In this document: in pieces, positions 23,064 to 56,660 of the stretch
Position numbering within the stretch: the first letter of the stretch is position 1
Layout of the letters: every line of letters begins with the position of its first letter
Assembly (NCBI GenBank): GCA_034722015.1
Contig: JAYENI010000207.1
Span: 1 to 56,895, forward strand
Length of the DNA: 56,895 nt
Direction: 5' to 3'
Source: Pseudomonadota bacterium
GTDB lineage: Bacteria > Pseudomonadota > Gammaproteobacteria > JAJDOJ01
Translations under genes and position numbers: made by a program
The notes under the pieces: model-generated
What the model saw: only the letters and a program-made list of their open reading frames with translations
Databases searched by the model: none
Told to the model about the DNA's origin: nothing

Positions 23064-23134
23064 GAACGTGATCGTGCCGCAGCCTGCCAGGGCGTGAATG
23101 TCTGCTGATTTGCCGTTGCGTGAACGCCTTGTGC

Positions 23135-37927: not shown

Positions 37928-37981
37928 ACGTCAGGTCGCCCCATCGTTACCGTGGACCTGTGAAGGGTGTACGCACACTAA

Positions 37982-38138: not shown

Positions 38139-38265
38139 TAAACGGCCTATCGGATAGCCGACATCATGCTCCGTGGGTGTCGGTAGCAGGGATGCTACCG
38201 TCAAGCCCACAGGGCAGTCTTCACGGCGTCCCACGCAGGAACATGTCGGGTCTCCAGGGTGCGTA

Positions 38266-39711
38266 TTAGTACGCACTTTTCTCCGATTCGCTGTCCGGAA
38301 TGCCCAGGACCTCGAGCATCGAATGCAGTTTCCACTCCGTTTCCTCGTATTCCGCCCCCGGATCCGAACCCTCCACAATACCCGCGCCGGCGAAGATATC
38401 CGCCGCATGTCCGCGCACGAGGGCGCAGCGCAAGACCACTGACAATGTCCCACTCCCCGCGGGATCGATCCAGCCGATCGCACCCGTATACCAGCCACGC
38501 AACTCCTCGCCGTGCCGGTCAAGCCACTCGATGGCGGGTTCAGTCGGCGACCCGCCTACCGCCGGCGTGGGATGCAGCACGGACGCGAGTTCCAGCAGGG
38601 AAACCCCGTCTCGCGGCTCTCCCTCGATACGCGTCCACAGGTGCCCCATTCGGGAAAAACGAACGACGCTGGGTTCACGTGCATACCGGACGTTTTGACA
38701 TCGTGATCGCAGTGCAACCGCGATGGCATCGACGACCAGTGCCTGCTCGTGCCTGGACTTTTCGTCTCGCGAAAATGCACTGACGCGATCCTCCGCGCCG
38801 GTTTCCGCCGGGAACAGGCGGGTCCCCGCCACTGCATCGCTCCAGGCGACGCTGTCGTGCAGCGAAACGAGGTGCTCGGGAGAACTGCCGAACAGGGTCG
38901 CACCTCTCATCGTCACGGCGAACTGCACCCGGCCCGGGTTTGGGCCCGCCAGACCTTCCAGGGCCTCGGGAGAGATACCGATACCGCGGCCCTCGACACG
39001 GGCTCGTCGGGAAAGAACGACCTTGTCGAATTCTCCCGATCGAATTGCCTCGATCGCCTCCGCGACCCGGCCCTCCCAGACCCGCCGATCGAGACTGGAC
39101 ACGATACGGGGGGGGGGCAATGATGCGCCCGCGCCGCGTACAGTCCGGGTGCCGTCGAGTAACGTCGCCGCGCAGGTGACCCACTCCCTGCACAGCTGCC
39201 TTGCATCGGTCGCGGCACGCACGGCGTCCCCCGTAAACGTTATTGCGCAAGTGTCGCCCCGGCTTTCGTAGAGCATTGATGGCACGGTCAGCAGCGCGTT
39301 GGGAAATCCGGCCCAGCGCGACCGCATCGGGTCGAGAGGATCGAACGCAAACCCCGTAAAAACACCCGGCGCCAGGCCGGTACGGTGCGGATCGTGTTGG
39401 CGCCATTGTTTTGTGAGTTTGCCCAGCATGGCGTTCAGGCGCTCAATCCGGCCTGCGCCGGATGCCACGTACCGGATCGCGTGACCCAACCCGAGCCTCA
39501 CGCACCCGTCCTCCGGGCGGGCCCAGAACAGGGCGCCCTCGTCGACCGCGGGCATTCGACGGATCGGAATTCGAGGTGCCGGCAATGTCAGACTGACGAG
39601 GCCCCGCTCATGGCTCTCGCCGGCAATGGAGCGCAGAAATCCGTCCAGTTGCCGTTCCAGGTCAGTCAGCAGATCGGCCACCCCGATCGCGTGTGCTGTC
39701 ACGTTGTACAA
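38266..39711 (-). CDS. menF: Isochorismate synthase
   Basis: KVVLSR, FGSSPE, LHPTPAVGG, RGWYTGAIGW and FAGAGIVEGS; upstream of menD; TTG start uncertain. Confidence 0.85.
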   Translation of the reverse strand: MYNVTAHAIGVADLLTDLERQLDGFLRSIAGESHERGLVSLTLPAPRIPIRRMPAVDEGALFWARPEDGCVRLGLGHAIRYVASGAGRIERLNAMLGKLTKQWRQHDPHRTGLAPGVFTGFAFDPLDPMRSRWAGFPNALLTVPSMLYESRGDTCAITFTGDAVRAATDARQLCREWVTCAATLLDGTRTVRGAGASLPPPRIVSSLDRRVWEGRVAEAIEAIRSGEFDKVVLSRRARVEGRGIGISPEALEGLAGPNPGRVQFAVTMRGATLFGSSPEHLVSLHDSVAWSDAVAGTRLFPAETGAEDRVSAFSRDEKSRHEQALVVDAIAVALRSRCQNVRYAREPSVVRFSRMGHLWTRIEGEPRDGVSLLELASVLHPTPAVGGSPTEPAIEWLDRHGEELRGWYTGAIGWIDPAGSGTLSVVLRCALVRGHAADIFAGAGIVEGSDPGAEYEETEWKLHSMLEVLGIPDSESEKSAY

Positions 39712-40619: not shown

Positions 40620-40958
40620 TAGACCCTGGACGACAACCGCGAGGCACGTCCCCGGATCGTGTCAGCCGAAACACGCGACGGCATCAGCGTTCTTCCTCCG
40701 TGTCGATAAACCGCAGGGACATTCGGTTTGCGGATCCCGCAGCCCTTGCAATAATCGGAATCAAACACATAGTGGCTCCCGTCTTCAACACGGCCACGTC
40801 GGGGCAAAGGGTCCAGCAGTTGTCGCATGCGAAACGTTTGCCGCAGGGTCTCGTCCTGGGCGATCAGGAACGACGGGCGACGAAACTGGCAGCGAAGCAG
40901 GATCGGTCCGCTGGAAATGTGCACGAACGCCGCGACCGTGTATGCGTATCTCGATCAT
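40620..40958 (-). pseudogene. Collapsed remnant of a 2-oxoacid:ferredoxin oxidoreductase-type operon (gamma subunit plus 4Fe-4S protein pieces)
   Basis: ATG at 40958 gives MIEIRIHGRG; then PILLRCQ..PSFLIAQDETL; then, in shifting frames, CGKRFACDNCWTLCPDVAVLKT, YVFDSDYCKGCGI and ECPCG. Confidence 0.7.
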
Positions 40959-41546
40959 GGGCCCCTTCAGTGGCTCCCGGCAGGGATTCCGGCTGGATTG
41001 CGACGCCGCCTCAGTCTAACAAATCCCCGGACGGTGCATCCGTCCCCCGGCTGGGAACAGGTGCTAGCCTCAGGACGTTGCTCCCGCGGACGGCACCCAC
41101 TACATTCACGGACAAACAGGTGACGACACTGCTGGTTTTCGCGGGGCCTTCGCCCCGGCGGACAGCCGAACGACCAAACCGGGGCAACCCTGATGAAAGG
41201 CTGGCACACGATCAACGATACGCTTCGGGAAGAGCTGGATTACCTGTTGACACACGATCGCGTAACCTCACTAAGCCTGCGAACAGGCACCCGTTCGATA
41301 TACCCGTCGCGGACAGGTTTTCACGAGAAAGTGTGCGTCATACTCGTTTCGTGGCAAGGCACGATGACACGGAATAGCCATTCTATTGCAAGGAATCGCA
41401 ACGCCGCCACGGGCCGAGGAGGGCGTGCAATTTCCGGGGAAACCTGTTCGTGATGAGTATATATCGCCATAGATAGATTTCACTTGGCCGCGACAGGTGG
41501 CAGAATCGTTTTCAAGAAGTCATTCCCCTGGGTATCCCGAACCGTC

Positions 41547-44372
41547 ATGACCCGAAGTTTTTCCAAGCCAACGCATCGACGCCCCGCTGTCGGGCCGGGA
41601 CTGCGAAAACTGCTCGTGGTGGTTTTTGCCCTGTTTGCGCTGCTCGTCGTCAATTCCGTCTACCTGGCGGGTGTCACCACCCTGGAGTGGGCGACCGGGC
41701 GCGTCTATCAGGACTACACCTATCAGATCGTCTTCCTCCTGCACCTGGTTCTCGGGCTGGCGCTGGTTCTGCCGGTCGCGGTGTTCGGGGCACTGCACTT
41801 TCGAAGTGCCCACAAGCGGCGAAATCGCCCCGCAGTTCGGGCTGGTCTCTCGTTGTACGTTACGGCGCTGGTGCTGCTCCTGAGCGGGCTCGTCCTGACG
41901 CGTTTCGGCTTCTTCGAGATCAACGATGCGGGAACCCGGCGCGCGGTCTACTGGGTCCACGTGATCACACCGTTGATCGTCGCCTGGCTTTTCGTACTGC
42001 ATCGCCTTGCAGGACCACAAATAAGATGGAAGTCCGGTTTGCGATGGGCCGGCGTGGCAGCGGCCTTCTCCATGGTCATGATTGCCCTTGACCTGCAGGA
42101 CCCGCGCGACTGGAATGCGAGGGGTTCAGAATCCGGCGAACAGTACTTCCTGCCATCACTGGCGCGGACCGCAAGCGGGGAGTTCATCCCTGCCGAAACG
42201 ATCATGATGAACGACTACTGCGCGGAGTGCCACCAGGATTCGCACGACCGATGGGAGCAGAGCGTCCATCACTTCAGTTCGTTCAACAATCCGGCCTATC
42301 TGTTCAGCGTGCGCGAAACCCGCAAGGTGGCGCTGGAACGGGACGGCAAGCTGGACGCGGCGCGTTTCTGCGCCGGTTGCCATGACCCGGTGCCCTTCTT
42401 CAGCGGCGCATTCGACGACCCGGCGTTCGACGATGAGAACGACCCGATCGCCAGGGCCGGGATCACGTGTACCGCATGCCACGCCATCACGCACATCAAC
42501 AGCCCGCGGGGAAATGCCGACTACACCATCGAGGAACCCCTGCACTACCCCTTCGCGTTCAGCGAAAACGCCCTGCTCAAGGCGATCAACCACCAATTGA
42601 TCAAGGCCAAGCCGGAGTTTCACAAGAAAACCTTCCTCAAACCCCTGCACAGGACACCCGAGTTCTGCGGTACGTGCCACAAGGTTCACCTGCCCCGGGA
42701 GGTCAACAACTACAAGTGGCTGCGTGGTCAGAACCACTACGATGCCTTTCTGCTCAGCGGCGTCTCCGGGCACGGGGCCAGCAGTTTCTACTACCCGCCA
42801 AATGCGATCGAGAACTGCGCCGAGTGTCATATGCCGCTGCACGAGGCCCGGAACGATTTTGGGGCCCACAGCGTGGCGGGCTCCACCGAACCGGTGCTCC
42901 ACGACCACGCCTTCGCCGCCGCCAACACGGCGGTGCCGTTCATGACCGGCCTCCCCGAGGAAGGGATCGCGGCACGGCAGGCATTTCTCAGCAACGCGCT
43001 GCGCGTGGACATCTTCGGACTTCGCGAGGGTGGCACGATCCAGGGAACCCTCCACGCGCCCATTGGGCCCGACATACCCGCTGTAACACCGGGATCGACC
43101 TACCTGCTCGAGACAGTTCTCCGGACCCTGAAACCCGGGCACGTGTTTACACAGGGTACCTCGGACTCGAACGAGGTCTGGCTGGACGTGACGGTCTACA
43201 GCGGCGAAAGAGTCATTGGTCGCAGTGGCGGCATGGGGAATGACGGCGCTGTAGACCCCTGGTCTCACTTCGTCAATGCCTATGTCCTGGACCGGGACGG
43301 TAATCGTATCGACCGTCGTAACGGGCAGGATATCTTCGTTGCGCTCTACAACCACCAGATTCCGCCCGGCGCCGCCGACGTGGTGCACTATCGCCTCAGG
43401 ATCCCCGAGGACGTGCATGACACTGTCACCGTCGTGGTCGAACTGAAGTATCGAAAATTCGACACAACCTACCTGAAGTACATCGAGGGGGACGGCTTCG
43501 ACGTCAATGACCTGCCGGTGACGATCGTCGCGAGCGACAGTGTGACCTTTCCGGTGACCCCGGCCCCGGATTCGGTCGACGAGACCGCGCCTGCGACGGA
43601 CACCTGGGTACGCTGGAACGACTACGGGATCGGGCTGTTACGCAAGGGTAATCGCGGGTCCGCCAAGGGTGAGTTACGTCAGGCGGAGCAGGCCTTCGCG
43701 CAGGTCGAGGCCCTGGGGCGAGGTGACGGTCCTCTCAACCTGGCGCGGGTCTACATCAAGGAAGGACGACTGGAGGATGCCTCCGACGCCCTGCACCGCG
43801 CGGCCGATAAGGGTGCACATCCCTGGTCCGTCGCGTGGTTCACCGGTCTGGTGAACAAGCAGAATGGTTTTCTCGATGACGCGATCGTCAATTTCACCGA
43901 CGTTCTGGAGACGAATTTCGCGGACGCCCGCACCCGCGGTTTCGACTTTTCGAAAGACTACCGCGTGGTCAACGAACTCGGGCAGACGTTGTTCGAACGC
44001 GCAAAGCAGGAGCGGGGCGATTCCCGACGGGCCGGGCGTGAAACCCGCCTGCGGGGGGCGGAACGGCAATTCCTCAGGACACTGGAGCTGGACCCGGAGA
44101 ACGTGACCGCACACTACAACCTGAGCCTGATCCTCGCCCGTCTGGGAGACCCGGCCGGGGCCGCCGAACACCGGGCGCTGCACCTGAAGTACAAGCCGGA
44201 CGACAATGCCCGTGAACGGGCAGTCGCACTGCATCGGCGAGCCAACGCGGCGGCCGATCATGCGGCGGAGTCGGTCGTGGTGTACGACCTGCAACGATCC
44301 GGCGCCCCGGGTCTGACGCCTGAAGGACGACGCGCCGCCAGCCCGGGTACGAAGTTCGAGCCTTCCGGTTAA
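41547..44372 (+). CDS. Membrane-anchored penta-heme c-type cytochrome with C-terminal TPRs
   Basis: About 5 N-terminal TM segments with several His; five CxxCH motifs (CAECH, CAGCH, CTACH, CGTCH, CAECH); TPR-like tail; start 41547 preferred over 41484. Confidence 0.88.
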   Translation: MTRSFSKPTHRRPAVGPGLRKLLVVVFALFALLVVNSVYLAGVTTLEWATGRVYQDYTYQIVFLLHLVLGLALVLPVAVFGALHFRSAHKRRNRPAVRAGLSLYVTALVLLLSGLVLTRFGFFEINDAGTRRAVYWVHVITPLIVAWLFVLHRLAGPQIRWKSGLRWAGVAAAFSMVMIALDLQDPRDWNARGSESGEQYFLPSLARTASGEFIPAETIMMNDYCAECHQDSHDRWEQSVHHFSSFNNPAYLFSVRETRKVALERDGKLDAARFCAGCHDPVPFFSGAFDDPAFDDENDPIARAGITCTACHAITHINSPRGNADYTIEEPLHYPFAFSENALLKAINHQLIKAKPEFHKKTFLKPLHRTPEFCGTCHKVHLPREVNNYKWLRGQNHYDAFLLSGVSGHGASSFYYPPNAIENCAECHMPLHEARNDFGAHSVAGSTEPVLHDHAFAAANTAVPFMTGLPEEGIAARQAFLSNALRVDIFGLREGGTIQGTLHAPIGPDIPAVTPGSTYLLETVLRTLKPGHVFTQGTSDSNEVWLDVTVYSGERVIGRSGGMGNDGAVDPWSHFVNAYVLDRDGNRIDRRNGQDIFVALYNHQIPPGAADVVHYRLRIPEDVHDTVTVVVELKYRKFDTTYLKYIEGDGFDVNDLPVTIVASDSVTFPVTPAPDSVDETAPATDTWVRWNDYGIGLLRKGNRGSAKGELRQAEQAFAQVEALGRGDGPLNLARVYIKEGRLEDASDALHRAADKGAHPWSVAWFTGLVNKQNGFLDDAIVNFTDVLETNFADARTRGFDFSKDYRVVNELGQTLFERAKQERGDSRRAGRETRLRGAERQFLRTLELDPENVTAHYNLSLILARLGDPAGAAEHRALHLKYKPDDNARERAVALHRRANAAADHAAESVVVYDLQRSGAPGLTPEGRRAASPGTKFEPSG

Positions 44373-44529
44373 GGCGATTACCGGAAAATGACATACTAGA
44401 TTTCGCCGGATTTTCGGTCGTCATCAAGGCGCGACAACAGGCGCATAGTCGATCTATGTAACGGTTGTCGCAACACAGAGGACGGACGAAAAGACAAGCA
44501 AGATGGTATGTCATTTGACAGAAATCGCC
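44373..44529 (+). mobile_element. 157-bp MITE, copy 6; its left TAA is the cytochrome stop codon
   Basis: TAA at 44370-44372 and 44530-44532. Confidence 0.9.
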
Positions 44530-44547
44530 TAATGCGACCAGGCCGGG

Positions 44548-46188
44548 TCAGATCAGTGGCAACAGGCCCTTGATGGCGAGAATTCCGGCTGCCGCCAGAG
44601 CGGAAACGGTCAGTACGTTCCAGCGTTCGCGCTTTTCGATGATGAGCAATTCACAAGCGTACCAGAGCACGATCAGCTTGACGATCAGCACCCCGGTGCT
44701 CTCGTATCCGCCGAATATGAGCGAATACACCAGGCCGGTCACCATGATGAAGACCATCAGGTAGTCCATGGCGGTCGTCTGGAACTCCACACTCCGGCGC
44801 CCCGGATTGAAACGCACGGCAACTGCTACGCTCAACGCCATGAGAAAGAAATACACGGCCTTGAATTCCGCCAACCAGGGTCCGACAATCCTGGGAAAAT
44901 CGAGCTGCAGAAAGACCACCACCGATGCCAGCACGAAGATCAGGGAACGCCTCACCACGGAGCGTGTGGTGCCGATGAACAACGGCTCGATCACCAGCAG
45001 GACGAAAATCAGCGCCGCACCCAGCGCCACGTCGACCGGGACCTCGCGCACCAGAAAACTCCCGAAGATCAGGTACGCGGGGACGGCAAACTCCAGATAA
45101 CGCCGTGGAGCAATCACGAGCAACGTACGGCGCGCCCGCGATAGTGTATTGTGGATATTCTCCGCGTCCTTGTCCTTGTCGGCGCGCCAGCCCGAACGTT
45201 CCGCCAGATTGAGAGGAATAAACAACGACGCCAGCATGGCCAGGTAGCAAGTGAGGATCAGCCATTCGTTCTGGTTACGCAGCAACAATCCGCTCGCAAC
45301 CAGCAGCGTCTGCACCGAATAAATGATCACGACGGATTCCCGGTGCGCGAAACCCAGGTCCAGAAAACGATGATGCACGTGATTGCGCGTGGCGAGGAAC
45401 CAGCTGCCACCGCCCTGGATGCGCTTCTTCAGCACGACGAGGATGTCAACGACCGGTAGTCCGATCAATAACAACACCACTGCGGAATTGAGTGAAGTAT
45501 CCAGTTGCTGCGTCAGGAGAACGGCGAGAAAACCCACCGTATAACCGAGAAACTGACTGCCACCGTCGCCCATGAAAACCGTGGCGGGATGGGTGTTGTA
45601 TCGCAGAAACCCCAATATTCCCCCGATGGTCGCAAATGCCACCACCAGGGCCAGATGGCCGCCTGCGATCCAGGACAGGAGCGCCATGGCCCCGATACTC
45701 AACAACGATTCCCCCGCGGCCAGTCCGTCGAGCCCGTCGGAATGATTGAGGGCGTTGATCACTCCGACCATGGCGATCACGGTGAAGGGAATGCCGATGA
45801 CCGGGGAAAGATTGTCCACGCCGAGAAACGGCAGCGAGGTCACGTAGAGATCGCCGTAACCGACGAGAACACCCACCGCGATGAACTGGCCGACGAATTT
45901 GGACCAGTGACTTACCTCCATGCGGTCGTCCCAGGTACCGAATACGAACAGAACCAGCGCACCAATGACGTAGGCATGGATCAAACGCTCGTCGCCGGCA
46001 ACGTAGAGGATCGGCAGGAGTGCACCGATGAATATCCCCCAACCGCCGACCCGCGCGATCGGGGTCGTGTGGACCTTCCTCGCATCGGGTTTGTCGATCA
46101 TCCCCAGTCTCGGGGCAAGACGCACCATCAACGGGACGACCGCGAGGCTGATCGACATCGCCCCGAAAACGATAAGTACGTACGTCAT
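44548..46188 (-). CDS. MraY/WecA-family polyprenyl-phosphate HexNAc-1-phosphate transferase with an extra C-terminal membrane domain
   Basis: DKPDARKVH...RVGG, DDR, NALNHSDGLDGLA, FMGDGGS and HVHHR; about 200 extra hydrophobic residues. Confidence 0.88.
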   Translation of the reverse strand: MTYVLIVFGAMSISLAVVPLMVRLAPRLGMIDKPDARKVHTTPIARVGGWGIFIGALLPILYVAGDERLIHAYVIGALVLFVFGTWDDRMEVSHWSKFVGQFIAVGVLVGYGDLYVTSLPFLGVDNLSPVIGIPFTVIAMVGVINALNHSDGLDGLAAGESLLSIGAMALLSWIAGGHLALVVAFATIGGILGFLRYNTHPATVFMGDGGSQFLGYTVGFLAVLLTQQLDTSLNSAVVLLLIGLPVVDILVVLKKRIQGGGSWFLATRNHVHHRFLDLGFAHRESVVIIYSVQTLLVASGLLLRNQNEWLILTCYLAMLASLFIPLNLAERSGWRADKDKDAENIHNTLSRARRTLLVIAPRRYLEFAVPAYLIFGSFLVREVPVDVALGAALIFVLLVIEPLFIGTTRSVVRRSLIFVLASVVVFLQLDFPRIVGPWLAEFKAVYFFLMALSVAVAVRFNPGRRSVEFQTTAMDYLMVFIMVTGLVYSLIFGGYESTGVLIVKLIVLWYACELLIIEKRERWNVLTVSALAAAGILAIKGLLPLI

Positions 46189-46484
46189 AGAATGATCATG
46201 ACGTAGTTCCGGACGCAGGGGGGCACCGTGGGAATAAACGGCAAGAAGGTACCGGATTGCCTCCCGGCGTGTATCAAGCAGCTTATTCTGTGCATTTGTT
46301 CTTCTTCGGGTTTATGAACCGGCGCGGTCGAAGTATTCCGCCGATGTACGAGTCTCGAGCCGGTGACAGTATACCGGGGGTTGTGGAAATTCAAAAAGCG
46401 TGCCCCGACACCCTCACCATGTATTGTCGAATATGTCTCGCACCCCCTTTATAATATAAGAAAATTCTGATTACATTGAGTAAT

Positions 46485-46499
46485 GGCGACATTGTCGCC
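46485..46499. promoter_or_regulatory. Palindrome in the divergent promoter region, possible operator
   Basis: GGCGACA-T-TGTCGCC directly after an AT-rich stretch (46448-46484). Confidence 0.3.
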
Positions 46500-46567
46500 G
46501 GGCGGGCACTCCCGACCCGCAACAATGATCCGGTTTGTACCGAAGCGGCGACCGCAGGGAAGAAAGA

Positions 46568-48412
46568 ATGGCCACTCCAGTAGAGAAATCCAGTGACAAG
46601 ATCATCGGACGTGCCTTCCGTCGATCCCTCCTGACGATCGTCATGATCATACTGCTATCCGGCGGCGCCATTCTGTGGGTGAAAAAAACCGCTGAGACCC
46701 CGGAGTCGGGCGTAGAGGCGACGATCTCCGGTCCCACTTTGATGGCGTCACGGGTGTCTCGCCCCCCCCCCGGAGTCGTCTTCACGGACATCACCGCAAC
46801 CTCGGGTGTCGACTTCGTCCACGTCAACGGCGCTACCGGTGAAAAACTGCTGCCAGAAACCATGGGTGGGGGTGTCGCGTTCCTTGACGTCGACATCGAC
46901 GGGGACCAGGACCTGTTCCTGGTCAATTCCATGCCCTGGACTGGCGACCCGACCGACGGCGCCGCCACCTCGGCCCTGTACCGCAATGATGGCACAGGTT
47001 CATTTGAAAATGTCACGCGTCAGGCCGGGCTGGATCTGACACTCTACGGCATGGGTGTGGCCGCGGGCGACTATGACAACGACGGTGACCAAGACCTCTT
47101 TGTCACCGCAGTCGGTAAAAACCGGTTGCTGCGCAACGACGGCGGCGTGTTTCAGGACGTCACGGATATCGCGGGCGTGGCGGGAGACCCCGCGGAATGG
47201 AGTACGTCGGCCGCATTCGTCGATTACGACAACGACGGCGATCTGGACCTGTTCGTCGCCAACTACGTGCGCTGGTCCCGGGACATCGACTTGGAGATCG
47301 ACTTCAGGCTGACCGGAATCGGGCGCGCCTATGGTCCCCCCACCACATTTGAGGGACGCCACCCCTATCTCTACGCAAACAACGGTGACGGCACCTTCTC
47401 CGACGTGTCGGACAGCTCAGGTGTGCAGATTGCCAACGCGGCGACCGGGGCCCCGATGGGCAAGGCGCTGGGCATCTCCCCCATGGACGTCAATCGGGAC
47501 GGCCGGATCGATCTGTTCGTCGCCAATGACACGGTCAGAAACTTCCTGCTGCTCAACCGGGGTGACGGTGGATTCGACGAGACCGGCGTGACAATGGGCG
47601 TCTCGTTCGATCGCAACGGCAGCGCCACCGGGGCGATGGGAACCGATACGGCATACTACCGCGATGATGGCGAACTGGGTCTGGCCGTCGGCAACTTCGC
47701 CAACGAGATGACGTCCCTTTACGTCACACAGGGTGGCGACGGACAGTTTGCTGACGAGGCCATCGGCGACGGAATCGGCCCGGCCTCACGCAGGGCGCTG
47801 ACGTTCGGACTGTTCTTCTTCGACTACGACCTCGACGGTCGGCTCGATCTCCTCCAGGCCAATGGACACCTGGAGGACGAAATCAATGTCGTACAGCCCA
47901 GTCAGCACTACGCCCAGCCGGCGCAGCTGTTCTGGAACTGCGGTCCGGAATGTCCGGCGACCTTTGTCGTGGTACCGGGGGATTCCAGTGGCGATCTGGG
48001 CACGCCGGTCGTCGGGCGCGGCGCGAGTTTCGCGGACATCGATGGTGACGGCGATCTTGATGTCGTCATTACGCAGACCGGGGGACGGCCGCTGCTGCTT
48101 CGCAACGACCAGGCGACAGGACACCACTGGTTGCGGATCGTGCCGGCCGGGCGCACCGTCAATCGAGACGCGATCGGCACCTGGGTCGAGGTGACGGCAA
48201 ACGGCAGGACGCAGACCCGTCAGCTCATGCCGACCCGGAGTTACCTTTCACAATCGGAGCGCGTCGTCACCTTTGGCCTCGGCGCGGCCGCCGTGGCGGA
48301 TGAGGTACGCGTCCTGTGGTCGGATGGCTCGGAACAGCGCATCGGCCCCGTTGATGCGAACCAGACGCTGCATATCAGGCAGGAAACGGATCAGGGAGAC
48401 ACAGCAAGTTGA
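46568..48412 (+). CDS. CRTAC1-like FG-GAP repeat/ASPIC-UnbV protein, N-terminally anchored
   Basis: ETMGGGVAFLDVDIDGDQDL, repeated DxDxDGxxD motifs, C-terminal GRTVNRDAIG...RSYLSQ...VTFGLG. Confidence 0.88.
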   Translation: MATPVEKSSDKIIGRAFRRSLLTIVMIILLSGGAILWVKKTAETPESGVEATISGPTLMASRVSRPPPGVVFTDITATSGVDFVHVNGATGEKLLPETMGGGVAFLDVDIDGDQDLFLVNSMPWTGDPTDGAATSALYRNDGTGSFENVTRQAGLDLTLYGMGVAAGDYDNDGDQDLFVTAVGKNRLLRNDGGVFQDVTDIAGVAGDPAEWSTSAAFVDYDNDGDLDLFVANYVRWSRDIDLEIDFRLTGIGRAYGPPTTFEGRHPYLYANNGDGTFSDVSDSSGVQIANAATGAPMGKALGISPMDVNRDGRIDLFVANDTVRNFLLLNRGDGGFDETGVTMGVSFDRNGSATGAMGTDTAYYRDDGELGLAVGNFANEMTSLYVTQGGDGQFADEAIGDGIGPASRRALTFGLFFFDYDLDGRLDLLQANGHLEDEINVVQPSQHYAQPAQLFWNCGPECPATFVVVPGDSSGDLGTPVVGRGASFADIDGDGDLDVVITQTGGRPLLLRNDQATGHHWLRIVPAGRTVNRDAIGTWVEVTANGRTQTRQLMPTRSYLSQSERVVTFGLGAAAVADEVRVLWSDGSEQRIGPVDANQTLHIRQETDQGDTAS

Positions 48413-50166
48413 AACAAGGTAGAACCCACGGGTGGCGAGCGGTGGCGGTACTGGCCATCTTGTTGCCGCCAATGGCCATCGCGGCCACCCAGACGTTCGA
48501 GGACCGCGCGGCCGACACGGGCCTCACGTTCGAATACTTCAACGGGATGTTCGGCGAGTTCTACTTCGTCGAGAACATCGGCGGTGGCGTGGCGCTGCTC
48601 GACTTCGACAACGACGGCGATCTCGACGTCTACCTGACACAGGGGCATATGCTCGGAAAAGGAAAGACCTTCGCGGATGCGTCGTACCCACCACCGGACG
48701 GTCTCGAACTGAACGACCGGCTTTTCCGCAACGATCTCGTCGTCGGCAGGGACGGAAAACCGCAGCTGCGTTTCACCGACGTGACGCGCGAAGCGGGACT
48801 GGACGTGCGCGACTACGGCATGGGAGTCTCCGCCGCGGACTACGACAACGACGGAAACACGGACCTGTTCGTCACGAGCTGGGGGCAAAACCGGCTGCTG
48901 CGAAATCTCGGCAACGGAAAATTCGCCGACGTCACTGCCAGGACCGGACTCGGGGCCGAAGGCTGGGGCGTGAGTGCCGCGTTCCTGGACTATGACCGGG
49001 ACGGAAACCTCGACCTCTATGTCGGCAATTACGTCGTCTTCGACCCGGAGAAAAACAAGGCGTGCTTCGCGCTGAACGGGGCGCAAGACTATTGCGCCCC
49101 CCAGTTCTACGAAGCGATCGGCGACCGGCTCTACCGCAATCGGGGGGACGGTACCTTCGAGGACGCGACCGCTGCCGCCGGCATCGACAAGGCGACTGCC
49201 CCCGGACTCGGGGTCATTGCCGCGGATTTCAATGGTGACGGCTGGACCGACGTCTACGTTGCCAACGACGGTCGCCCGAATCAGCTCTGGATCAACCAGA
49301 AAAACGCAAGCTTCAAGGACGACGCCTTTCTGGCCGGAGTGGCGGTGAACATGGAAGGCGCCCCGGAGGCGAGTATGGGGGTCGACGCGGCGGATTTCGA
49401 CGCAGACGGTGACGAGGACCTCTTCATGACGCACCTCCTCGGTGAAACCAACACGATCTACGTCAACGACGGCCAGGGCTGGTTCGAAGACCGCACTCCG
49501 GCGACCGGGCTCGGCGCCCCCAGCAAGGGATTCACCTCCTTCGGCACGATCTGGTTCGACTACGACAACGACGGCTGGCTCGACCTGTTCATCGCCAACG
49601 GCGAGGTGCGGGTGATGCCGATCCTGGCCCGATCCGGGGACAAGTATCCCCTGCGTCAGCCGAACCAGCTGTTTCGCAGTCTCGGCAACGGAAAATTCGA
49701 GGAAGTCACGGCGAACGCCGGGGACGTCTTCGGTCTGTCCGAGGTCAGCCGCGGTGCTGCAATGGGCGACATCGACAACGATGGTGATCTCGATATCGTT
49801 GTAGCCAACAGCAACGGCCCGACCCGTCTCCTGATCAACAACATCGGCAACGAAAATCCCTGGATCGGGTTCCGGTTGCTGGATTCGAGGGGGCGCGATG
49901 CCATCGGCGCCAACATCGAGATCACCAGAAAAAGGGCGGGGCCGCTGCACCGCCGGGTCCGGACGGACGGCAGTTACGCGTCGGCGAATTCACCCCGCGT
50001 GCTCGTCGGACTTGGCAAGGATCCCGAAATCGAGCGCGTGACGGTGCACTGGCCGAGCGGCCGGACAGAATCCTGGCGCAGTCTGTCTACCGGCCGATTC
50101 CACACCCTGGCAGAAGGAGAGGGACGGGCGGCGGATACGAAGGATGACCCGGCGAGGTCTGGTTAA
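48409..50166 (+). CDS. CRTAC1-like FG-GAP repeat/ASPIC-UnbV protein with signal peptide
   Basis: ENIGGGVALLDFDNDGDLD, repeated DYDNDG motifs, SRGAAMGDIDNDGDLD and DAIGA...GSYASANS; TTG start overlapping the upstream stop. Confidence 0.88.
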   Translation: MKQGRTHGWRAVAVLAILLPPMAIAATQTFEDRAADTGLTFEYFNGMFGEFYFVENIGGGVALLDFDNDGDLDVYLTQGHMLGKGKTFADASYPPPDGLELNDRLFRNDLVVGRDGKPQLRFTDVTREAGLDVRDYGMGVSAADYDNDGNTDLFVTSWGQNRLLRNLGNGKFADVTARTGLGAEGWGVSAAFLDYDRDGNLDLYVGNYVVFDPEKNKACFALNGAQDYCAPQFYEAIGDRLYRNRGDGTFEDATAAAGIDKATAPGLGVIAADFNGDGWTDVYVANDGRPNQLWINQKNASFKDDAFLAGVAVNMEGAPEASMGVDAADFDADGDEDLFMTHLLGETNTIYVNDGQGWFEDRTPATGLGAPSKGFTSFGTIWFDYDNDGWLDLFIANGEVRVMPILARSGDKYPLRQPNQLFRSLGNGKFEEVTANAGDVFGLSEVSRGAAMGDIDNDGDLDIVVANSNGPTRLLINNIGNENPWIGFRLLDSRGRDAIGANIEITRKRAGPLHRRVRTDGSYASANSPRVLVGLGKDPEIERVTVHWPSGRTESWRSLSTGRFHTLAEGEGRAADTKDDPARSG

Positions 50167-50170
50167 CGGC

Positions 50171-51931
50171 ATGGCAAAGTTATTTATGATTCGGACACCT
50201 TCCATACTTCACCGGAAAATCGTCGTGAGACTGCCGGACCGGTCGAGTCGGGTCCTTCCGGCGCTCCTCGCGGTGTGCCTGTGGGCACCATTCCCGGCCC
50301 AATCGTTACCCGGTGCAGAACCCCTTTCGGTTCCCGTTACCGTCACAACAGACGGAAAGACGATTCATCTCGAGGCGCTGCCCACACCCGACCTGTCCGA
50401 GACCGAGGAGGCAGTCAGACAGACCCTCGAGGAAACACGCCGGAGTCTCGCCGCGCTGACCCGCGGAGAGTCCGATGCGGGCAAACTCGCGTCGGCATGG
50501 GGACGCCTCGGCGAGTTGTATCACGCCCACCACATCTACATCCCCGCGGACCCGGCATACGCCAACGCCGGCTCGCTGGATCCCGGGAATCCCCGCTGGC
50601 CCTACCTTCGGGCCTGGCTGGCCGAGAAGACCACGCGTTCCGATGACGCCATCCGGTACTACAACCAGGTGCTGGAACTCGATCCCGATCACGAGCACGC
50701 CCGACTGCGACTCGCGTTGGTCTACCTCGACGTCAATCAGACCGACAAGGCGAGGCCGCTGCTGGAGAAACCCTTCACGACCCCCGGCATGGACGCCGCG
50801 GTCCAGTTCGCGCTTGGCAGGATGGCATTGCAGGAACATGACTATGAACGTGCGGCCGGGATGCTGGAACGGGTGCTGGAATTACAGCCTCACGCCTCAC
50901 GCGCCTATTCCCCACTTGGCATGGCCTACCGCGGTATGGGAGATGTCGAAGGGGCACGGCGCGCACTTTCCCTTTACGGGGACGGCAAACCAAAGATCCC
51001 GGACCCCGTGACAGACGATCTCGACGCCCTGCTGACCGGGGGCCGCACCCAGTTTCACAGGGGGCTCGTCGGGATCCAGGAAGGTCGCTATGACATCGCC
51101 GCGGCGGCATTCGGCGACGCCGCGGCAGCGAACCCGGAAAATGTCAATGTACGAGTGAGTTACGCCCGCGCGCTGTACCTCGACGGCAGGAAAGACGCCG
51201 GCCGCGGGGAACTGGAGGCGGCACTGGAGCAGGACCCCGACCACGCACTCGCAAACTTTCTTTACGGCGTACTACTGGCCGGGGACGGTCAAGAGGAGGA
51301 GGCGGTTTCCCGATTGGAGAAGACTCTCTCTCGTGAACCGGAACACTCGGGCGCGCACCATTTCCTGGGAAACGTCATGATGGAAACCGGCGACTATGGC
51401 GCCGCGGCGCGGCACTACGAAGCGGCCGTGCGCGCAACGCCCATGGACAACGTCGCCCGCGCCCTGGGCGCCATGGCGCTGTTGCGCTCGGGGGCCCCGC
51501 ACGCACGCGCGGTGGCGCTCCTCGAAGAGGCGCACGGGGCCGACCCGGGGAATCCCTTCTTCACCTATACACTGGCCTGGCTGCTCGCAGGCAGCCCGGA
51601 TGCAGGCGTTCGAGACGGGCCACGAGCACTCGCGCTGGCCGAGGCGCTGATCGAGCGGCAGGACGATCCCGGAAACGCCGAGGTCCTGGCCATGGCCCTC
51701 GCGGAGACCGGTCAGTATGACGAGGCCGAATCGCTACAATCGCGCGTCATCACGTCAGCCTTCCAGGGCGGACGGTTTGACATCGCACCCCGATTACAGC
51801 GCTGTCTGGAGTCCTACAGAAGCGCGCAGGGCTGCCATCACATCTGGCCCGAGAACGACCCTGTCTACCGCGCGCCTCCGCTCGACCCAAGCGGGCCGTT
51901 CAGGGACTATCCCACGATCGATCCCTACTAA
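50171..51931 (+). CDS. Exported multi-TPR protein
   Basis: Hydrophobic N-terminus, many TPR-like repeats (e.g. AIRYYNQVLELDPDHEHARLRLA); start uncertain (50144/50171/50225). Confidence 0.82.
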   Translation: MAKLFMIRTPSILHRKIVVRLPDRSSRVLPALLAVCLWAPFPAQSLPGAEPLSVPVTVTTDGKTIHLEALPTPDLSETEEAVRQTLEETRRSLAALTRGESDAGKLASAWGRLGELYHAHHIYIPADPAYANAGSLDPGNPRWPYLRAWLAEKTTRSDDAIRYYNQVLELDPDHEHARLRLALVYLDVNQTDKARPLLEKPFTTPGMDAAVQFALGRMALQEHDYERAAGMLERVLELQPHASRAYSPLGMAYRGMGDVEGARRALSLYGDGKPKIPDPVTDDLDALLTGGRTQFHRGLVGIQEGRYDIAAAAFGDAAAANPENVNVRVSYARALYLDGRKDAGRGELEAALEQDPDHALANFLYGVLLAGDGQEEEAVSRLEKTLSREPEHSGAHHFLGNVMMETGDYGAAARHYEAAVRATPMDNVARALGAMALLRSGAPHARAVALLEEAHGADPGNPFFTYTLAWLLAGSPDAGVRDGPRALALAEALIERQDDPGNAEVLAMALAETGQYDEAESLQSRVITSAFQGGRFDIAPRLQRCLESYRSAQGCHHIWPENDPVYRAPPLDPSGPFRDYPTIDPY

Positions 51932-51962
51932 GGCGATTTCTGTCAAATCACATACCATCTTG
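51932..51962 (-). repeat. Terminal fragment of the MITE at the TPR gene stop codon
   Basis: TAA-GGCGATTTCTGTCAAATCACATACCATCTTG is identical to the corresponding end of copy 4. Confidence 0.8.
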
Positions 51963-52031
51963 ATGAACGAGATAACTGCCAGGCAACACGGGAAGACGCC
52001 ATCGAGGCGACGCTGCGTGCATCTGCCCGGC

Positions 52032-55000
52032 ATGCGTTTCCTGCAATTTCCGCTACTTGCCCTGTTCGTTCTGCTCGCCGCTCTCGGCGGTTGTTCGCGG
52101 GACGAGGGGGCCTACGAAGAGGTGTCGGCACAGCATTTTCCCACCGGTTCCCGCCTGGATCCGGATGTCGTTGCGGCGAACAACCTCGGTGTCGGCCTGA
52201 TGGGCCAGTTCGATTATGCCGGCGCACAAAATGTCTTTTCGGAACTCCTCGAACGTCACCCGGAACTCGAGGAGGTCAAGGTCAACCTGGCCATCGCGAC
52301 CCTGAATCGCCAGGATGAAGGCGACGAGCAGACCGCCCTGGAGATCGTGGACCAGGTCATAGCCAACCACCCCGCCCAACTGCGTGCCCACTACGTCGCC
52401 GGACTGCTACGCCTCTATATGGCCACGCCGGAGACCGCCCTGGCACATTTCCGTACCATCAGCGAGGCCGACCCCCGGGACGCTTATGCCGCCTACTACC
52501 TCGGGCAAACACTGGCGCAGACCGGGGAACACGAAACCGCCGTCCTCCGGTATCGTGAGGCGCTGGACATCGACCCCTATCTGCGGAGTGCCTACTATGG
52601 CGCTTTCCAGGCCCTTCGGCGCCTGCGACGGGCCGAAGAGGCCAGGGTGCTGATCGACGCCTATCAGCGTCTGGCCGACAATCCACGGGCCCGCCTCGCT
52701 GAATTCAAGTACACGCGAATGGGACCAAAGGCCGAGGCACTGGCCTTCGGTGACGCCGGGAGTACCCCTTCGCCGCACCCGAAAGGCCCCCTCTTCTCGC
52801 AACCTGTCGAGGTCTCAAGCCAGCGGGTTCGTGCCACCGGCGATCCGCAGCGTCACGCCGGCGTAAATGCCGCCGACGTAGACGGTGACGGACGCATCGA
52901 TCTTTTTCTCTCCGGTCGCCGCAGTGCCTCCGGGACCTTCAACACCCTGCTATCGGGGCTGGAGGATACCGGAACCCCGAAGGTGAAAGAATTTCCGCCA
53001 GACTCCATCGACGGTGTTAATGCCAGTGTGTGGGGCGACATCGACAACGACGGCCTGATCGACGTGTATCTACTTCGAAACGGACAGAACCAGCTCTGGC
53101 GCCAGGTCCGTCAGGGCGAGTGGCAAAACATTACCCTGGACTCAGGCACCTCGGCAGGCGATTCAGACTCCGTAGACGGCGCAATGTTCGATGCCGACCA
53201 CGACGGCGACCTCGATGTCTTCATCGTGAACGCGGACGGTCCCAACGAATTGCTGAACAACAACCGGGACGGGACCTTCCGGCCGATAGCGACTGACAGC
53301 GGCGTCGCGGGACCCGGCACCGGATCACGGCAGGTCCTGCCGATCGACCTCGATAACGATCGTGACGTCGATCTGGTCGTACTCAACACGAAGGCCCCGC
53401 ACGACGTCTATCTCAACGACCGGCTGTGGAGTTACCACCAGGCCGTGGGATTCGACCGGTTTCGCGACTCGCCGGCAATCGCCGTGATCGGCGCCGATCG
53501 GGACACCGACGGTCACGCGGAACTCTACACACTCGCCCCTGAAGGCGAGGTGTTGCGATGGCAGCAGCGCACCGACGATTCCTGGGCATCGCAATCCTTC
53601 GGCGAGGTGAAGGCACCGGCAAAGACATGGGGCCAGCTGGCGGCATTCGACGCCGACGGAGACGGCACACCGGACATCCTGGCGGCCACCACCGAGGGGT
53701 GGATTATCCTGGGTACGGGTGCCAACCCGTTTGTGTTCGTCGCAGAGCCCGGCGACCGGCTGACAGGAGTCACCCCCCTGCTCACCAAATCCACCCGGGG
53801 ATACTCGATCGCCGCTGTCTCGGCATCCGGCAGGGTCAACCTATGGCGCCCCGGTGACGGGCGCTACCCGTTCCTGACGATGCGCTTCAGCGGCAAGGAA
53901 GACAAGGCCAACTCGATGCGCTCGAATGCCTCCGGCATCGGGACCACGGTGACGGTCCGCAGTGGCGATCGATGGGCGGTTGTTGACACGTGGCGATTGA
54001 TCTCGGGACCGGGCCAGGGTCTCCAGCCGGTGGCAATCGGGCTTGGCGGCGCACAGGCCGCGGATTTCGTCGAGATCGACTGGTCCGACGGCGTCTTTCA
54101 GAGCGAACTCGCCCTGAAACCGGGCACCGAGCACCTCATCACCGAAACCCAGCGGCAACTCTCGAGTTGCCCGGTGCTGTTTGCCTGGAATGGCGAGCAA
54201 TTCGGGTTCGTGAGCGACCTGCTGGGTGTCGGTGGCATCGGCTACGCGGTCGGACCCGGGGAATACAGCGAACCCCGACCATGGGAAAATTTTCTCCTCC
54301 CGCCCGGCTCGATCAGGCCCCGCGACGGTCGCCTGGCGCTCAAGATCGCGGAACCCATGGAGGAAGCCGCGTACCTGGATGCCGCGAGACTGATTGCGTT
54401 CGACATGCCCCCGGGCTGGCGCATGGCGCTGGACGAGCGGTTACACACCGGCGGGCCGGAGCCCACCGGCACGCCGATTTTCTATCGCCACGAGAGTCTC
54501 CCTGCAGCAGCAACCAACGAACGGGGTGAAGACGTCCTCGCAACGCTCAGGGAAAGAGACGGCGTGGCGGCGCCGGTCGGCGAACTGGACGACCGGTTTA
54601 TCGGCAGGCTGGCCGGAGAACACGTCCTGACACTGGAGTTTCCCGCGGCACTCGAACGTCGGGGCACCGAAGCGGTACTGGTTGCCGATGGCTGGGTGGA
54701 GTATCCCTATTCGCAAACCAACTTCGCGGCCTGGCAAGCCGGCGCCACCTTCGATCCGCCGACCATCGAGGCCCGCGGCCGCGACGGTGCATGGCGGGTG
54801 GTCCTTCGCGGTTTCGGTTATCCCGCGGGGATGCCCAGAAGGATGTCGGTTCCTCTGGCCGATCTACCACCCGGGACCAACGGGCTGAGAATTCGCTCGA
54901 ACATGGAAGTCTACTGGGACAGGATTGCGGTCGCCTGGGTTGAACCGCTGACCTCGGCCCGGCGATCGGATCTTGAGCTTCTCGAGGGCCGGGTTGCGGC

Positions 55001-55388
55001 CACCGGGTTTGCGCGAAGGACGACATTTGCCCAGCGCCGACCATGGTACGACTACCGGGACCGAGCCCCCTTTTGGGACACCCGCTACCTCGCCGGCAAC
55101 TACACGCGCTTTGGTCCCGCGCCCGCACTGGTGAGCGAGGTCGACGACGCTGTGGCGATCATCGGCCCCGGAGAGGAGATCCACCTCGAGTTTGCCGCAC
55201 CGGAATTACCGGTCGAACCGGGCTGGTCGAGGCAGTATGTCCTGGAAACCAACGGCTGGGCCAAGGACATGGACCTCTACACCCGTGACGGGGATACCCT
55301 GGGGCCGCTTCCCGGGAGTGGAAAACCGGCCGCCCCCAGGGAGCGGCTGCACGATCGCTACAACACACGCTATCTGGCGGGACGATGA
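52032..55388 (+). CDS. Large lipoprotein: TPRs, FG-GAP repeats, ASPIC-UnbV-like region and an unassigned C-terminal domain
   Basis: MRFLQFPLLALFVLLAALGGC lipobox-type leader; TPRs; DxDxDG repeats; RSNASGIG; about 400-aa tail starting SSCPVLFAWNG. Confidence 0.85.
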   Translation: MRFLQFPLLALFVLLAALGGCSRDEGAYEEVSAQHFPTGSRLDPDVVAANNLGVGLMGQFDYAGAQNVFSELLERHPELEEVKVNLAIATLNRQDEGDEQTALEIVDQVIANHPAQLRAHYVAGLLRLYMATPETALAHFRTISEADPRDAYAAYYLGQTLAQTGEHETAVLRYREALDIDPYLRSAYYGAFQALRRLRRAEEARVLIDAYQRLADNPRARLAEFKYTRMGPKAEALAFGDAGSTPSPHPKGPLFSQPVEVSSQRVRATGDPQRHAGVNAADVDGDGRIDLFLSGRRSASGTFNTLLSGLEDTGTPKVKEFPPDSIDGVNASVWGDIDNDGLIDVYLLRNGQNQLWRQVRQGEWQNITLDSGTSAGDSDSVDGAMFDADHDGDLDVFIVNADGPNELLNNNRDGTFRPIATDSGVAGPGTGSRQVLPIDLDNDRDVDLVVLNTKAPHDVYLNDRLWSYHQAVGFDRFRDSPAIAVIGADRDTDGHAELYTLAPEGEVLRWQQRTDDSWASQSFGEVKAPAKTWGQLAAFDADGDGTPDILAATTEGWIILGTGANPFVFVAEPGDRLTGVTPLLTKSTRGYSIAAVSASGRVNLWRPGDGRYPFLTMRFSGKEDKANSMRSNASGIGTTVTVRSGDRWAVVDTWRLISGPGQGLQPVAIGLGGAQAADFVEIDWSDGVFQSELALKPGTEHLITETQRQLSSCPVLFAWNGEQFGFVSDLLGVGGIGYAVGPGEYSEPRPWENFLLPPGSIRPRDGRLALKIAEPMEEAAYLDAARLIAFDMPPGWRMALDERLHTGGPEPTGTPIFYRHESLPAAATNERGEDVLATLRERDGVAAPVGELDDRFIGRLAGEHVLTLEFPAALERRGTEAVLVADGWVEYPYSQTNFAAWQAGATFDPPTIEARGRDGAWRVVLRGFGYPAGMPRRMSVPLADLPPGTNGLRIRSNMEVYWDRIAVAWVEPLTSARRSDLELLEGRVAATGFARRTTFAQRRPWYDYRDRAPFWDTRYLAGNYTRFGPAPALVSEVDDAVAIIGPGEEIHLEFAAPELPVEPGWSRQYVLETNGWAKDMDLYTRDGDTLGPLPGSGKPAAPRERLHDRYNTRYLAGR

Positions 55389-56392
55389 TCACCCGCCTCG
55401 CCGACGATACGGGTGATCGTGGCCTGGCTGGTGTCCAGGATACCGACTTCGGATAACCGCGGCAGCAATTCACGCCAGACCGGTTCGCGAGCAAAGACAT
55501 CCCCGAACAGCGGCAGTGACTCGCCGGTCCTCCCTGCGTTGACCAGGGACACGGCGTGCCAGAACTTCATCTCCACATTATCGGGAAACATCGACTCGGC
55601 CCGACCGTATTCCTCGAGTGCCGCATCTACATTGCCCGCCTCGATGGCAAGGTCGCCACGATTCATGTGATTGTATGCCCGTTGAAGGCGCAGCAATCGC
55701 CCCAGTTCCTCGAGGGGACTGGGGTGGTCCTCCACATGCAGGTCGACGATGCGTTGTTCGAGCGGATGCCCGGTGGATCTGCCCCCCACGATCAGCATGG
55801 CCGCGGATTGACGCCCGCGCAGGTCCCCGCCATGTCGCTGCGCCGCTTCGAGCGCGGCCAGCATGCGCTCGGCCAGGCCGCCATTCGCCTGCGTGAATGC
55901 ACTGGCCATTTCCTCGGGTACGCCAGGGTTCAGCATCAGGTTTGCCTGGACACTGAAACCCTGACCCACCAGGTGGCCCGCGTACTGAATGCACCGTTCC
56001 CCGGTGTGCGCAGCGACATTCCCGTTCCCGTCGATGATCGCCACCTGCCGGACCTCCGGATGGGGATCCATCTTCACAATGGCATCAAGCGCCTGCCGTG
56101 CGGTCCAGTCGGCACGCATCAGATCCAGCGCGGAGGCCCCATACCTCGGCTCGATAAAGGACTGCGTCGCGACGGCACCGACCCCCGGTTCCGCCCAGAT
56201 CACCAGCGAACCGACTGCGAACCAGTGTGACTGCACGGCGACACCGAGTCGACCCGTCTCCGGGTCGCGCGCAACGATAGAGTAGGTATATACAGGTCGT
56301 CCACCGAACCCGCTACGATCCAGGGTGACCGATTGGGACATGGCCGCGGGCACCGTCAGACTCACGATCAGGACTGCCAGTAGTTGCCTCAT
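55370..56392 (-). CDS. DUF1028-family (Ntn-hydrolase-like) exported protein with C-terminal TPR
   Basis: Signal peptide, then TYSIVARDPETGRLGVAVQSHWFAVG, GAVATQS and GGDLRGRQSAA. Confidence 0.85.
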   Translation of the reverse strand: MRQLLAVLIVSLTVPAAMSQSVTLDRSGFGGRPVYTYSIVARDPETGRLGVAVQSHWFAVGSLVIWAEPGVGAVATQSFIEPRYGASALDLMRADWTARQALDAIVKMDPHPEVRQVAIIDGNGNVAAHTGERCIQYAGHLVGQGFSVQANLMLNPGVPEEMASAFTQANGGLAERMLAALEAAQRHGGDLRGRQSAAMLIVGGRSTGHPLEQRIVDLHVEDHPSPLEELGRLLRLQRAYNHMNRGDLAIEAGNVDAALEEYGRAESMFPDNVEMKFWHAVSLVNAGRTGESLPLFGDVFAREPVWRELLPRLSEVGILDTSQATITRIVGEAGDHRPAR

Positions 56393-56644: not shown

Positions 56645-56660
56645 TGGCATGCATTCTGCA
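56645..56660 (+). promoter_or_regulatory. Sigma54-type -24/-12 promoter
   Basis: TGGCATGCATTCTGCA: GG at 56646-56647, 10 nt, GC at 56658-56659; 75 bp upstream of an ORF with an AGGAG RBS. Confidence 0.65.

Follow-up and report, generated by a model that had tools for sequence, protein, structure and literature searches.

A question raised by positions 41547-55388 of the stretch of DNA analysed here (contig JAYENI010000207.1 of the gammaproteobacterial assembly GCA_034722015.1; 56,895 nt in all, hereafter "the window") is whether six neighbouring genes form a single functional system, and what such a system might do. The genes encode a multihaem cytochrome, two FG-GAP propeller proteins, an exported tetratricopeptide repeat (TPR) protein, a large TPR-propeller lipoprotein and a membrane sugar transferase. 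Open reading frame (ORF) listing, translation and Pfam/NCBIfam scans confirmed all six at the positions that a first-pass annotation, made from the sequence of the window alone, had given them. The domain matches in these genes have E-values from 1e-9 to 1e-48 and are therefore not due to chance. In this report, we argue that the products of five of the genes, here called CYT, CRA, CRB, TPR and BIG, are reasonably likely to constitute one copy of a conserved, quinone-linked redox module of the bacterial envelope. The sixth, GT4, is a local addition.

The central observation is the pairing of CYT with CRA. CYT (941 amino acids, aa; 41547-44372, plus strand) is a membrane cytochrome, probably of the b/c type, with five CxxCH motifs and a TPR tail, matched by Pfam Cytochrome_C554 and by TPR families; CRA is a CRTAC1-like propeller protein. 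We compared the window with 167 related loci, in which ORFs were called and scored against the window proteins. Of these, 83 are anchored on CYT and include the best 80 of at least 584 relatives found when one genome per species was scanned, and 84 are anchored on BIG and include 80 from a metagenome scan anchored on the C-terminal domain of that protein. Sixty-five of the CYT loci have at least 1.5 kb of sequence downstream of the gene, and 60 of them carry a CRA orthologue directly downstream of CYT and on the same strand. The downstream gene scores 650-880 bits against CRA and 250-300 against CRB; it is thus the orthologue of CRA itself rather than some other CRTAC1-like gene. In another of the 65 loci, L052, an insertion of 2.2 kb lies between CYT and CRA. 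CYT is also directly followed by a ~600-aa FG-GAP/UnbV gene in three large and unrelated assemblies, in which all other neighbours differ.

This pairing is widespread to judge from the taxa that carry it. The best 80 CYT relatives, all of them from metagenome-assembled genomes (MAGs), belong to Planctomycetota (32), Acidobacteriota (20), Pseudomonadota (16) and Verrucomicrobiota (7), with the remainder in Latescibacterota, Methylomirabilota and Gemmatimonadota, and thus to at least seven phyla; these phyla are also the sources of the 65 loci. The remark in the first-pass annotation that such clusters are most familiar from planctomycetes and acidobacteria agrees with this distribution. Across 43 genomes, the distance matrices of CYT and CRA correlate with r=0.73, a value reached by none of 999 permutations. 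The CYT tree mostly follows the phyla, requiring 10 label changes as against 39.7 with shuffled labels, and the window CYT groups with copies from gammaproteobacterial MAGs. Further, GC content is uniform over the whole window. A horizontal origin had been put forward for testing; from the placement of CYT in the tree and the even GC content, there is no sign of a recent acquisition.

The other genes recur around this pair in varying arrangements. In an all-against-all clustering of the ORFs neighbouring CYT, genes of the BIG type were recovered in 17 loci, of the TPR type in 10 and of the CRB type in about 10. The same clustering revealed a family that we did not find in the window: a ~370-aa CN_hydrolase gene (CNH), present in eight CYT loci and usually located just upstream of BIG. 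CRB-type genes adjoin TPR-type genes in many loci. The order CRA-CRB-TPR-BIG of the window is reproduced identically in L136, and the closest relative, L088 (80% identity), holds CRB-TPR-BIG at a contig end. In L085 and L087, a single protein of ~1250 aa combines CRA and CRB through a Pro/Ala-rich linker; its N-terminal half is of the CRA type (692-794 bits) and keeps the motif and anchor of that protein, and its C-terminal half is of the CRB type (705-710 bits). The fusion is followed by a TPR orthologue (392-396 bits) and then by BIG, as in the window. Orthologues of TPR scoring 390-970 bits thus occupy the matching position in L085, L087, L088 and L136. Elsewhere the order is shuffled: L084 and L086 contain CYT (minus strand), CRA, BIG, CNH (minus strand), CRB and TPR; the order CNH-BIG-CYT-CRA(-CRB-TPR) occurs about 10 times; and an arrangement with CYT (minus strand) and CRA-BIG followed by CNH (minus strand) is also recurrent.

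Loci gathered from the side of BIG tell a similar story. At least one partner (CYT, CRA, CRB, TPR or CNH) accompanies BIG in 51 of the 80 metagenome loci, and in 13 of the 17 that have at least 4 kb of sequence on both sides (CRB in 10, TPR in 9, CRA in 7, CYT in 5 and CNH in 5). Because the gene order is shuffled, because fusions occur (CRA with CRB, and TPR repeats with a propeller in BIG itself) and because the genes co-occur across phyla, we regard them as a functionally coupled set. The first-pass annotation had grouped five co-oriented genes joining haem and FG-GAP/UnbV propellers, and had named in advance a lack of co-occurrence in other genomes as the refuting outcome. The genes do co-occur, and the grouping corresponds to a real, recurrent set.

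The architecture of CYT is informative with regard to function. Its AlphaFold2 (AF2) model, with a mean predicted local distance difference test score (pLDDT) of 76, begins with a membrane domain (41547-42146) of five transmembrane (TM) helices at residues 17-50, 57-88, 94-117, 128-154 and 161-183. The N-terminus carries positive charge, and because the number of TM helices is odd, the haem domain that follows is expected to lie in the periplasm. Four histidines of the membrane domain, H66 and H84 in TM2 and H138 and H152 in TM4, are invariant over the 39 homologues in which residue invariance was judged. Spaced by 18 and 14 positions, respectively, on antiparallel helices, they suggest a transmembrane di-haem b module in which the four would be the putative ligands of two b-haems. 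The "possibly heme b" of the first-pass annotation is supported by this invariance.

The periplasmic five-haem domain of CYT (42144-42992) contains CxxCH motifs at residues 225, 275, 308, 374 and 424. All five are invariant, and their ten cysteines are the only invariant cysteines of the protein. Five further invariant histidines (H241, H359, H368, H452 and H454) are enough to furnish five bis-His c-haems, a pattern that fits electron transfer better than haem catalysis. A profile of the domain matches Thermochromatium tepidum c552 (Protein Data Bank [PDB] entry 5ze8) with an E-value of 3e-4 and MccSep with an E-value of 0.05. The NCBIfam model for ExtKL (NF040886) gives CYT 20 bits against a cut-off of 250, which is below the family threshold; this model is matched weakly by 25 of the 39 homologues, with a best E-value of 2.9e-7. 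Next comes a beta-sandwich (42984-43592), modelled as strands at residues 485-668 with pLDDT 85-95, for which neither a PDB profile search nor Pfam gave a match. The haem domain and the beta-sandwich are the most conserved parts of CYT, with mean column identities of 74% and 69%. The protein ends in a TPR tail (43602-44264; residues 686-906) that is recognized by Pfam TPR_16, TPR_19 and TPR_2 and that resembles MamA and consensus TPR proteins in Foldseek; a Foldseek search with the whole model returned TPR proteins only. More than 6000 homologues of equal length and 60-70% identity are present in the databases, where public sources name them merely "tetratricopeptide repeat protein" or "multiheme c-type cytochrome". 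Neither the membrane domain nor the beta-sandwich of CYT is represented by a curated NCBIfam or Pfam model, and the same is true of the C-terminal domain of BIG.

CRA (46568, or a TTG at 46535, to 48412; plus strand) scores 118 bits against FG-GAP_3 and 76 against UnbV_ASPIC, both above the Pfam cut-offs. From a short cytoplasmic N-terminus bearing the motif IIGRAFRRS, a single TM helix leads to FG-GAP repeats, in which Dx[DN]x[DN]G occurs six times, and to the UnbV_ASPIC domain. The TM anchor is common to all CRA orthologues, as is the cytoplasmic motif, which has the consensus DDxIIGRAFRWS. The AF2 model (pLDDT 85) is a CRTAC1-type propeller with an ASPIC domain, and its best PDB match is murine CRTAC1 (9etn; Foldseek E-value 2.1e-32, TM-scores 0.66/0.73, 593 columns). 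More distant fold matches are aldos-2-ulose dehydratase, the lectin PVL and integrin alpha propellers. The invariant residues are mainly the Asp and Gly of the calcium loops, with H434, E436, Q446, Q450, R484 and Y559 in addition. We considered whether CRA might be a catalytic propeller of the thiocyanate-dehydrogenase or pyrroloquinoline quinone (PQQ) kind, and rejected this; there is no conserved His/Cys/Met cluster, and nothing supports PQQ. Another CRTAC1-like protein is encoded in L084 (2960-4876, plus strand), near the CYT/CRA/BIG cluster of that locus; there, an FG-GAP/UnbV part is fused to an AhpC-TSA/Redoxin domain and TPR repeats, and a second AhpC/Redoxin gene lies nearby (23090-23372). 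This fusion is a further link between CRTAC1-like proteins and redox domains.

The three remaining members follow CRA closely in the window. CRB (48409-50166, plus strand), which shares 4 nt with the end of CRA, is a secreted paralogue of the same propeller type; its signal peptide is cleavable, it contains Dx[DN]x[DN]G seven times, and its scores of 161 bits for FG-GAP_3 and 58 for UnbV_ASPIC exceed the Pfam cut-offs. The exported TPR protein (50144 or 50186 to 51931, plus strand) matches Pfam TPR_19 with 134 bits and TPR_CcmH_CycH with 67. BIG (52032, or 51963, to 55388; plus strand) is a lipoprotein of 1118 aa, with the lipobox LLAALGGC (core LGGC) at its N-terminus, in which TPR repeats are clear to Pfam and FG-GAP_3 scores 93 bits. 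UnbV_ASPIC reaches 19.4 bits in BIG, below the cut-off of 23.4, and this domain is recorded in most BIG homologues. At least 1871 homologues share the ~1100-aa architecture at 60-80% identity. The C-terminal 418 aa of BIG (54132-55385) make up a domain without a relative in Pfam or the PDB, even when searched with a profile, and hhalign detected no relation between it and either the CYT beta-sandwich or CRA. Its mean column identity is 69%. An exhaustive profile search found 3542 clusters of the domain at 50% identity, almost without exception as the C-terminal part of proteins of ~1100 aa.

How might these proteins work together? In the arrangement that we favour, CYT would be an inner-membrane electron conduit. 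Its two predicted b-haems would trade electrons with the quinone pool and pass them to or receive them from the five periplasmic c-haems, which would be mounted on an immunoglobulin (Ig)-like beta-sandwich. CRA would be anchored beside CYT through its single TM helix and, on the cytoplasmic side, its conserved IIGRAFRWS motif; the acidic DD-IIGRAF motif of CRA has a candidate contact in RPNRRAVR, a conserved basic loop of CYT that connects TM2 with TM3. TPR modules occur in CYT, in the free TPR protein and in BIG, in each case paired with or fused to a propeller; they probably dock the propellers of CRA, CRB and BIG. The propellers, in turn, may bind or convert a periplasmic substrate that is oxidized or reduced through the haem chain. 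As to the nature of this substrate, we have only hints. The recurrent CNH gene encodes a nitrilase-superfamily protein without a signal peptide whose nearest curated relatives, formamidase and aliphatic amidase, score far below their cut-offs; it lies next to BIG at, for example, L079:5641-6753, L064:5581-6702 and L086:13400-14386, and in about 20 metagenome loci. A recurrent cytoplasmic amidase hints at a substrate or product that bears an amide and contains nitrogen, and the lectin and dehydratase relatives of the CRA fold hint at a carbohydrate. A more ambitious proposal is that the module represents a hitherto unrecognized, widespread class of quinone-linked periplasmic oxidoreductases in which the CRTAC1-type propeller, supplied by a cytochrome with two b- and five c-type haems, binds the substrate or catalyses its conversion, the substrate being an amide-forming nitrogen compound or a glycan. 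We would put this forward only tentatively, and consider it rather doubtful.

By its kind, the module would belong with membrane multihaem electron-transfer modules that have periplasmic partner subunits. CbcL of Geobacter sulfurreducens is an inner-membrane b/c fusion cytochrome with nine c-haems. Like CbcL, CYT combines two parts in a single polypeptide, a polytopic membrane domain in which histidines are paired and a multihaem c domain in the periplasm, and its presumed role, electron transfer between the quinone pool and the periplasm, is the same. Unlike CbcL, it has five c-haems, an Ig-like domain, a TPR tail and a near-obligate CRTAC1-like neighbour. That neighbour, CRA, shares the fold, the calcium-binding FG-GAP repeats and the UnbV_ASPIC domain of animal CRTAC1 (9ETN). 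It differs in having an N-terminal membrane anchor with a cytoplasmic motif and in ending after the ASPIC domain; the two proteins are 22% identical. We know of no link between animal CRTAC1, a secreted matrix protein, and redox proteins.

Two other comparisons bear on the haem proteins. MccSep is a soluble polysulfide reductase in which a cap with five haems is combined with an Ig-like stem (bioRxiv 10.1101/2025.11.18.688581; PDB 9WT8-9WTC). As in T. tepidum c552 (5ZE8) and the Geobacter MccSep/ExtKL proteins, CYT has five CxxCH motifs in a helical cap followed by a beta-sandwich, and the sequence similarity of the haem region is weak but repeatable. In contrast to the soluble c552 and MccSep, however, CYT is anchored in the membrane and has a TPR tail, and it lacks both the haem-ligating cysteine (axial at haem 2) and the catalytic selenocysteine (Sec) or cysteine of MccSep. 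In non-anammox bacteria, CRTAC1-family genes have been found between haem-c genes that resemble hydrazine synthase subunits, in clusters present in Planctomycetota and a few other phyla (PMC12758564). Those clusters, like ours, place a CRTAC1-type FG-GAP gene beside genes for c-type haem proteins. The haem proteins themselves are different from CYT, being hydrazine synthase alpha-like and beta-gamma-like with CCP/MauG-like dihaem parts, and the clusters are not reported to include a b/c membrane cytochrome, a TPR protein or a gene of the BIG type.

Several facts weigh against a single, electron-conducting module. CRA is not nearby in four of the 65 CYT loci, and BIG stands alone in four of the 17 well-flanked loci; the extended gene set is thus facultative. 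In the window, the GT4 insertion puts 2.2 kb between CYT and CRA, so that CYT and CRA-CRB-TPR-BIG must be two separate transcription units. The membrane domain of CYT, in another difference from CbcL, matched no known cytochrome b family in Pfam or in a PDB profile search; at E-values up to 1, Pfam Ni_hydr_CYTB and NapC/NirT were found neither with residues 1-218 nor with the whole protein, and the NrfH model is matched weakly by two of the 39 family members. Finally, the CRA orthologues have no conserved cysteine and no obvious site for a metal or redox cofactor, so that catalysis by the propeller is conjectural. An alternative is that CYT itself is the enzyme, a membrane-anchored relative of c552 and MccSep that oxidizes or reduces a small inorganic or a polymeric substrate (sulfur species or metals, for example), with the propellers and TPR proteins serving solely to capture, present or scaffold insoluble or polymeric material. 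We give this idea a small but appreciable chance. The only detectable relatives of the haem domain are T. tepidum c552 and MccSep/ExtKL, the catalytic MccSep has the same layout of haem cap and Ig-like domain, and it is precisely the haem and beta-sandwich domains of CYT that are most conserved. Yet the equivalents of MccSep Cys239 and Sec/Cys325 are missing, CYT has no invariant cysteine outside its haem motifs, the similarity to ExtKL is slight (about 20 bits, where the cut-off is 250), and the invariant histidines would suffice for the bis-His coordination typical of electron transfer. The carriers differ as well, being mostly Planctomycetota, Acidobacteriota and Verrucomicrobiota for CYT and mainly Desulfobacterota and Nitrospirota for MccSep. 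One could also imagine that the assembly is chiefly a structural or adhesive scaffold of TPR proteins and calcium-binding propellers, in which the cytochrome acts as a redox sensor or assembly factor without turnover. Animal CRTAC1, the integrins and many FG-GAP proteins do bind rather than catalyse; envelope TPR proteins are usually scaffolds, and we obtained many weak NCBIfam matches to PilW, Tgl, GltE, BcsC and LapB; and BIG is often found without CYT. However, CYT has no signalling output domain in Pfam, a predicted seven-haem transmembrane wire would be costly for mere sensing, the 60-70% identity of CYT and CRA across phyla suggests a tight constraint more typical of enzymes, and the recurrent cytoplasmic amidase gene suggests metabolism. 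We therefore deem a mainly structural role improbable, and retain the electron-conducting module as the better account.

The case of GT4 (546 aa; 44548-46188, minus strand) requires separate consideration, since the first-pass annotation had included it, as a WecA-like transferase, in a six-gene system whose redox chemistry might serve to modify a glycan or a secreted peptide. The protein scores 124 bits against Pfam Glycos_transf_4 (cut-off 27) and is a member of the MraY/WecA superfamily of polyprenyl-phosphate sugar-1-phosphate transferases. Its identity as WecA proper is less well founded, as it scores 161 bits against the WecA model TIGR02380, below the cut-off of 326, and it has an extra hydrophobic membrane C-terminus of ~210 aa without a family match. 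Some features do speak for its inclusion. GT4 and the CRA-BIG operon diverge from one spacer of ~350-380 bp (46189-46534/46567) that holds a TATAAT-like element, making local co-regulation possible, and the relatives of the CRTAC1 fold include sugar-binding lectins and a sugar dehydratase. Moreover, among the 65 loci just one, from a Thermoanaerobaculia MAG, has a gene inserted between CYT and CRA (L052:5545-7380, minus strand), and that gene, too, is membrane-bound and glycosyltransferase-like; it is a polytopic ORF that runs opposite to its neighbours and weakly matches the GT-C glycosyltransferase families PMT and PMT_2 (E-value 2e-4). The resemblance may be a coincidence or may reflect some loose connection with lipid-carrier glycosylation; a pair of cases is too small a basis for a conclusion. 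Against these points, a GT4 homologue is absent from all 83 CYT-anchored and 84 BIG-anchored loci, CYT and CRA are directly adjacent in the closest relatives (L004 and L005), and the neighbour families of the CYT loci include no conserved gene for a peptide precursor, a peptidase or an exporter. Given the absence of GT4 homologues, GT4 is a lineage-specific local insertion outside the conserved set. As the transferase is not a conserved component, nothing specific speaks for the proposed role in glycan or peptide modification, and a six-gene system of that kind strikes us as very improbable.

These results have several implications. In the literature that we searched, we found no description of the CYT family, of the CYT-CRA pairing or of the BIG domain. 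CYT represents a new cytochrome family with thousands of homologues, having relatives in at least 584 species genomes and at least seven phyla. Its near-obligate pairing with CRA provides the first testable functional context for the CRTAC1/ASPIC-UnbV family, namely inner-membrane redox chemistry. If the propeller should prove to be an enzyme, this would be the first biochemical function for that family, which includes the human cartilage protein. The analysis also exposes a 418-aa domain of BIG that has no Pfam model despite its ~3500 clusters. Should the module serve respiration or catabolism, metabolic models of abundant uncultured bacteria of sediments, soils and the sea would so far have lacked it. 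The window shows the complete CRA-CRB-TPR-BIG operon in clear form, with the parts list now corrected to five genes in and the transferase out. Sequencing runs holding window sequence were all DNA runs, the best being a brine metagenome; no RNA run was found among them.

Regulation of the module is hinted at by its neighbours in other genomes. An NtrC-type, sigma-54 two-component pair lies beside CYT in about six loci (L009, L060, L066, L070, L080 and L082), and the presence of this regulator and histidine kinase next to CYT in Acidobacteriota, Planctomycetota and Methylomirabilota suggests that expression is regulated there. We saw no such pair in the window. Sigma-54-type promoter matches upstream of CYT and CRA are at chance level and none is rightly placed; window-wide, 21 matches were found and 21.5 were expected by chance. 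A site at 56645-56660 (plus strand), TGGCATGCATTCTGCA, fits the -24/-12 consensus with two mismatches.

The genes that flank the module in the window are not among its recurrent companions. Directly upstream of CYT and on the same strand is a 225-aa ORF (40700-41377, plus strand) that may not be a real gene; Pfam gave no match for it, and homologues are missing from all 83 CYT loci. At the other end, a gene whose product matches DUF1028 (241 bits) and carries a TPR region at its C-terminus (55370-56392, minus strand) converges on BIG, the two stops overlapping by 19 nt; none of the 167 related loci contains a homologue. Lastly, 2-5 kb upstream are genes of the MenD-like (thiamine pyrophosphate enzyme) and MenF-like (chorismate-binding) kinds (36149-39711, minus strand), which are not conserved around CYT in other genomes. 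Their presence suggests that the organism makes menaquinone, a possible quinone partner for CYT.

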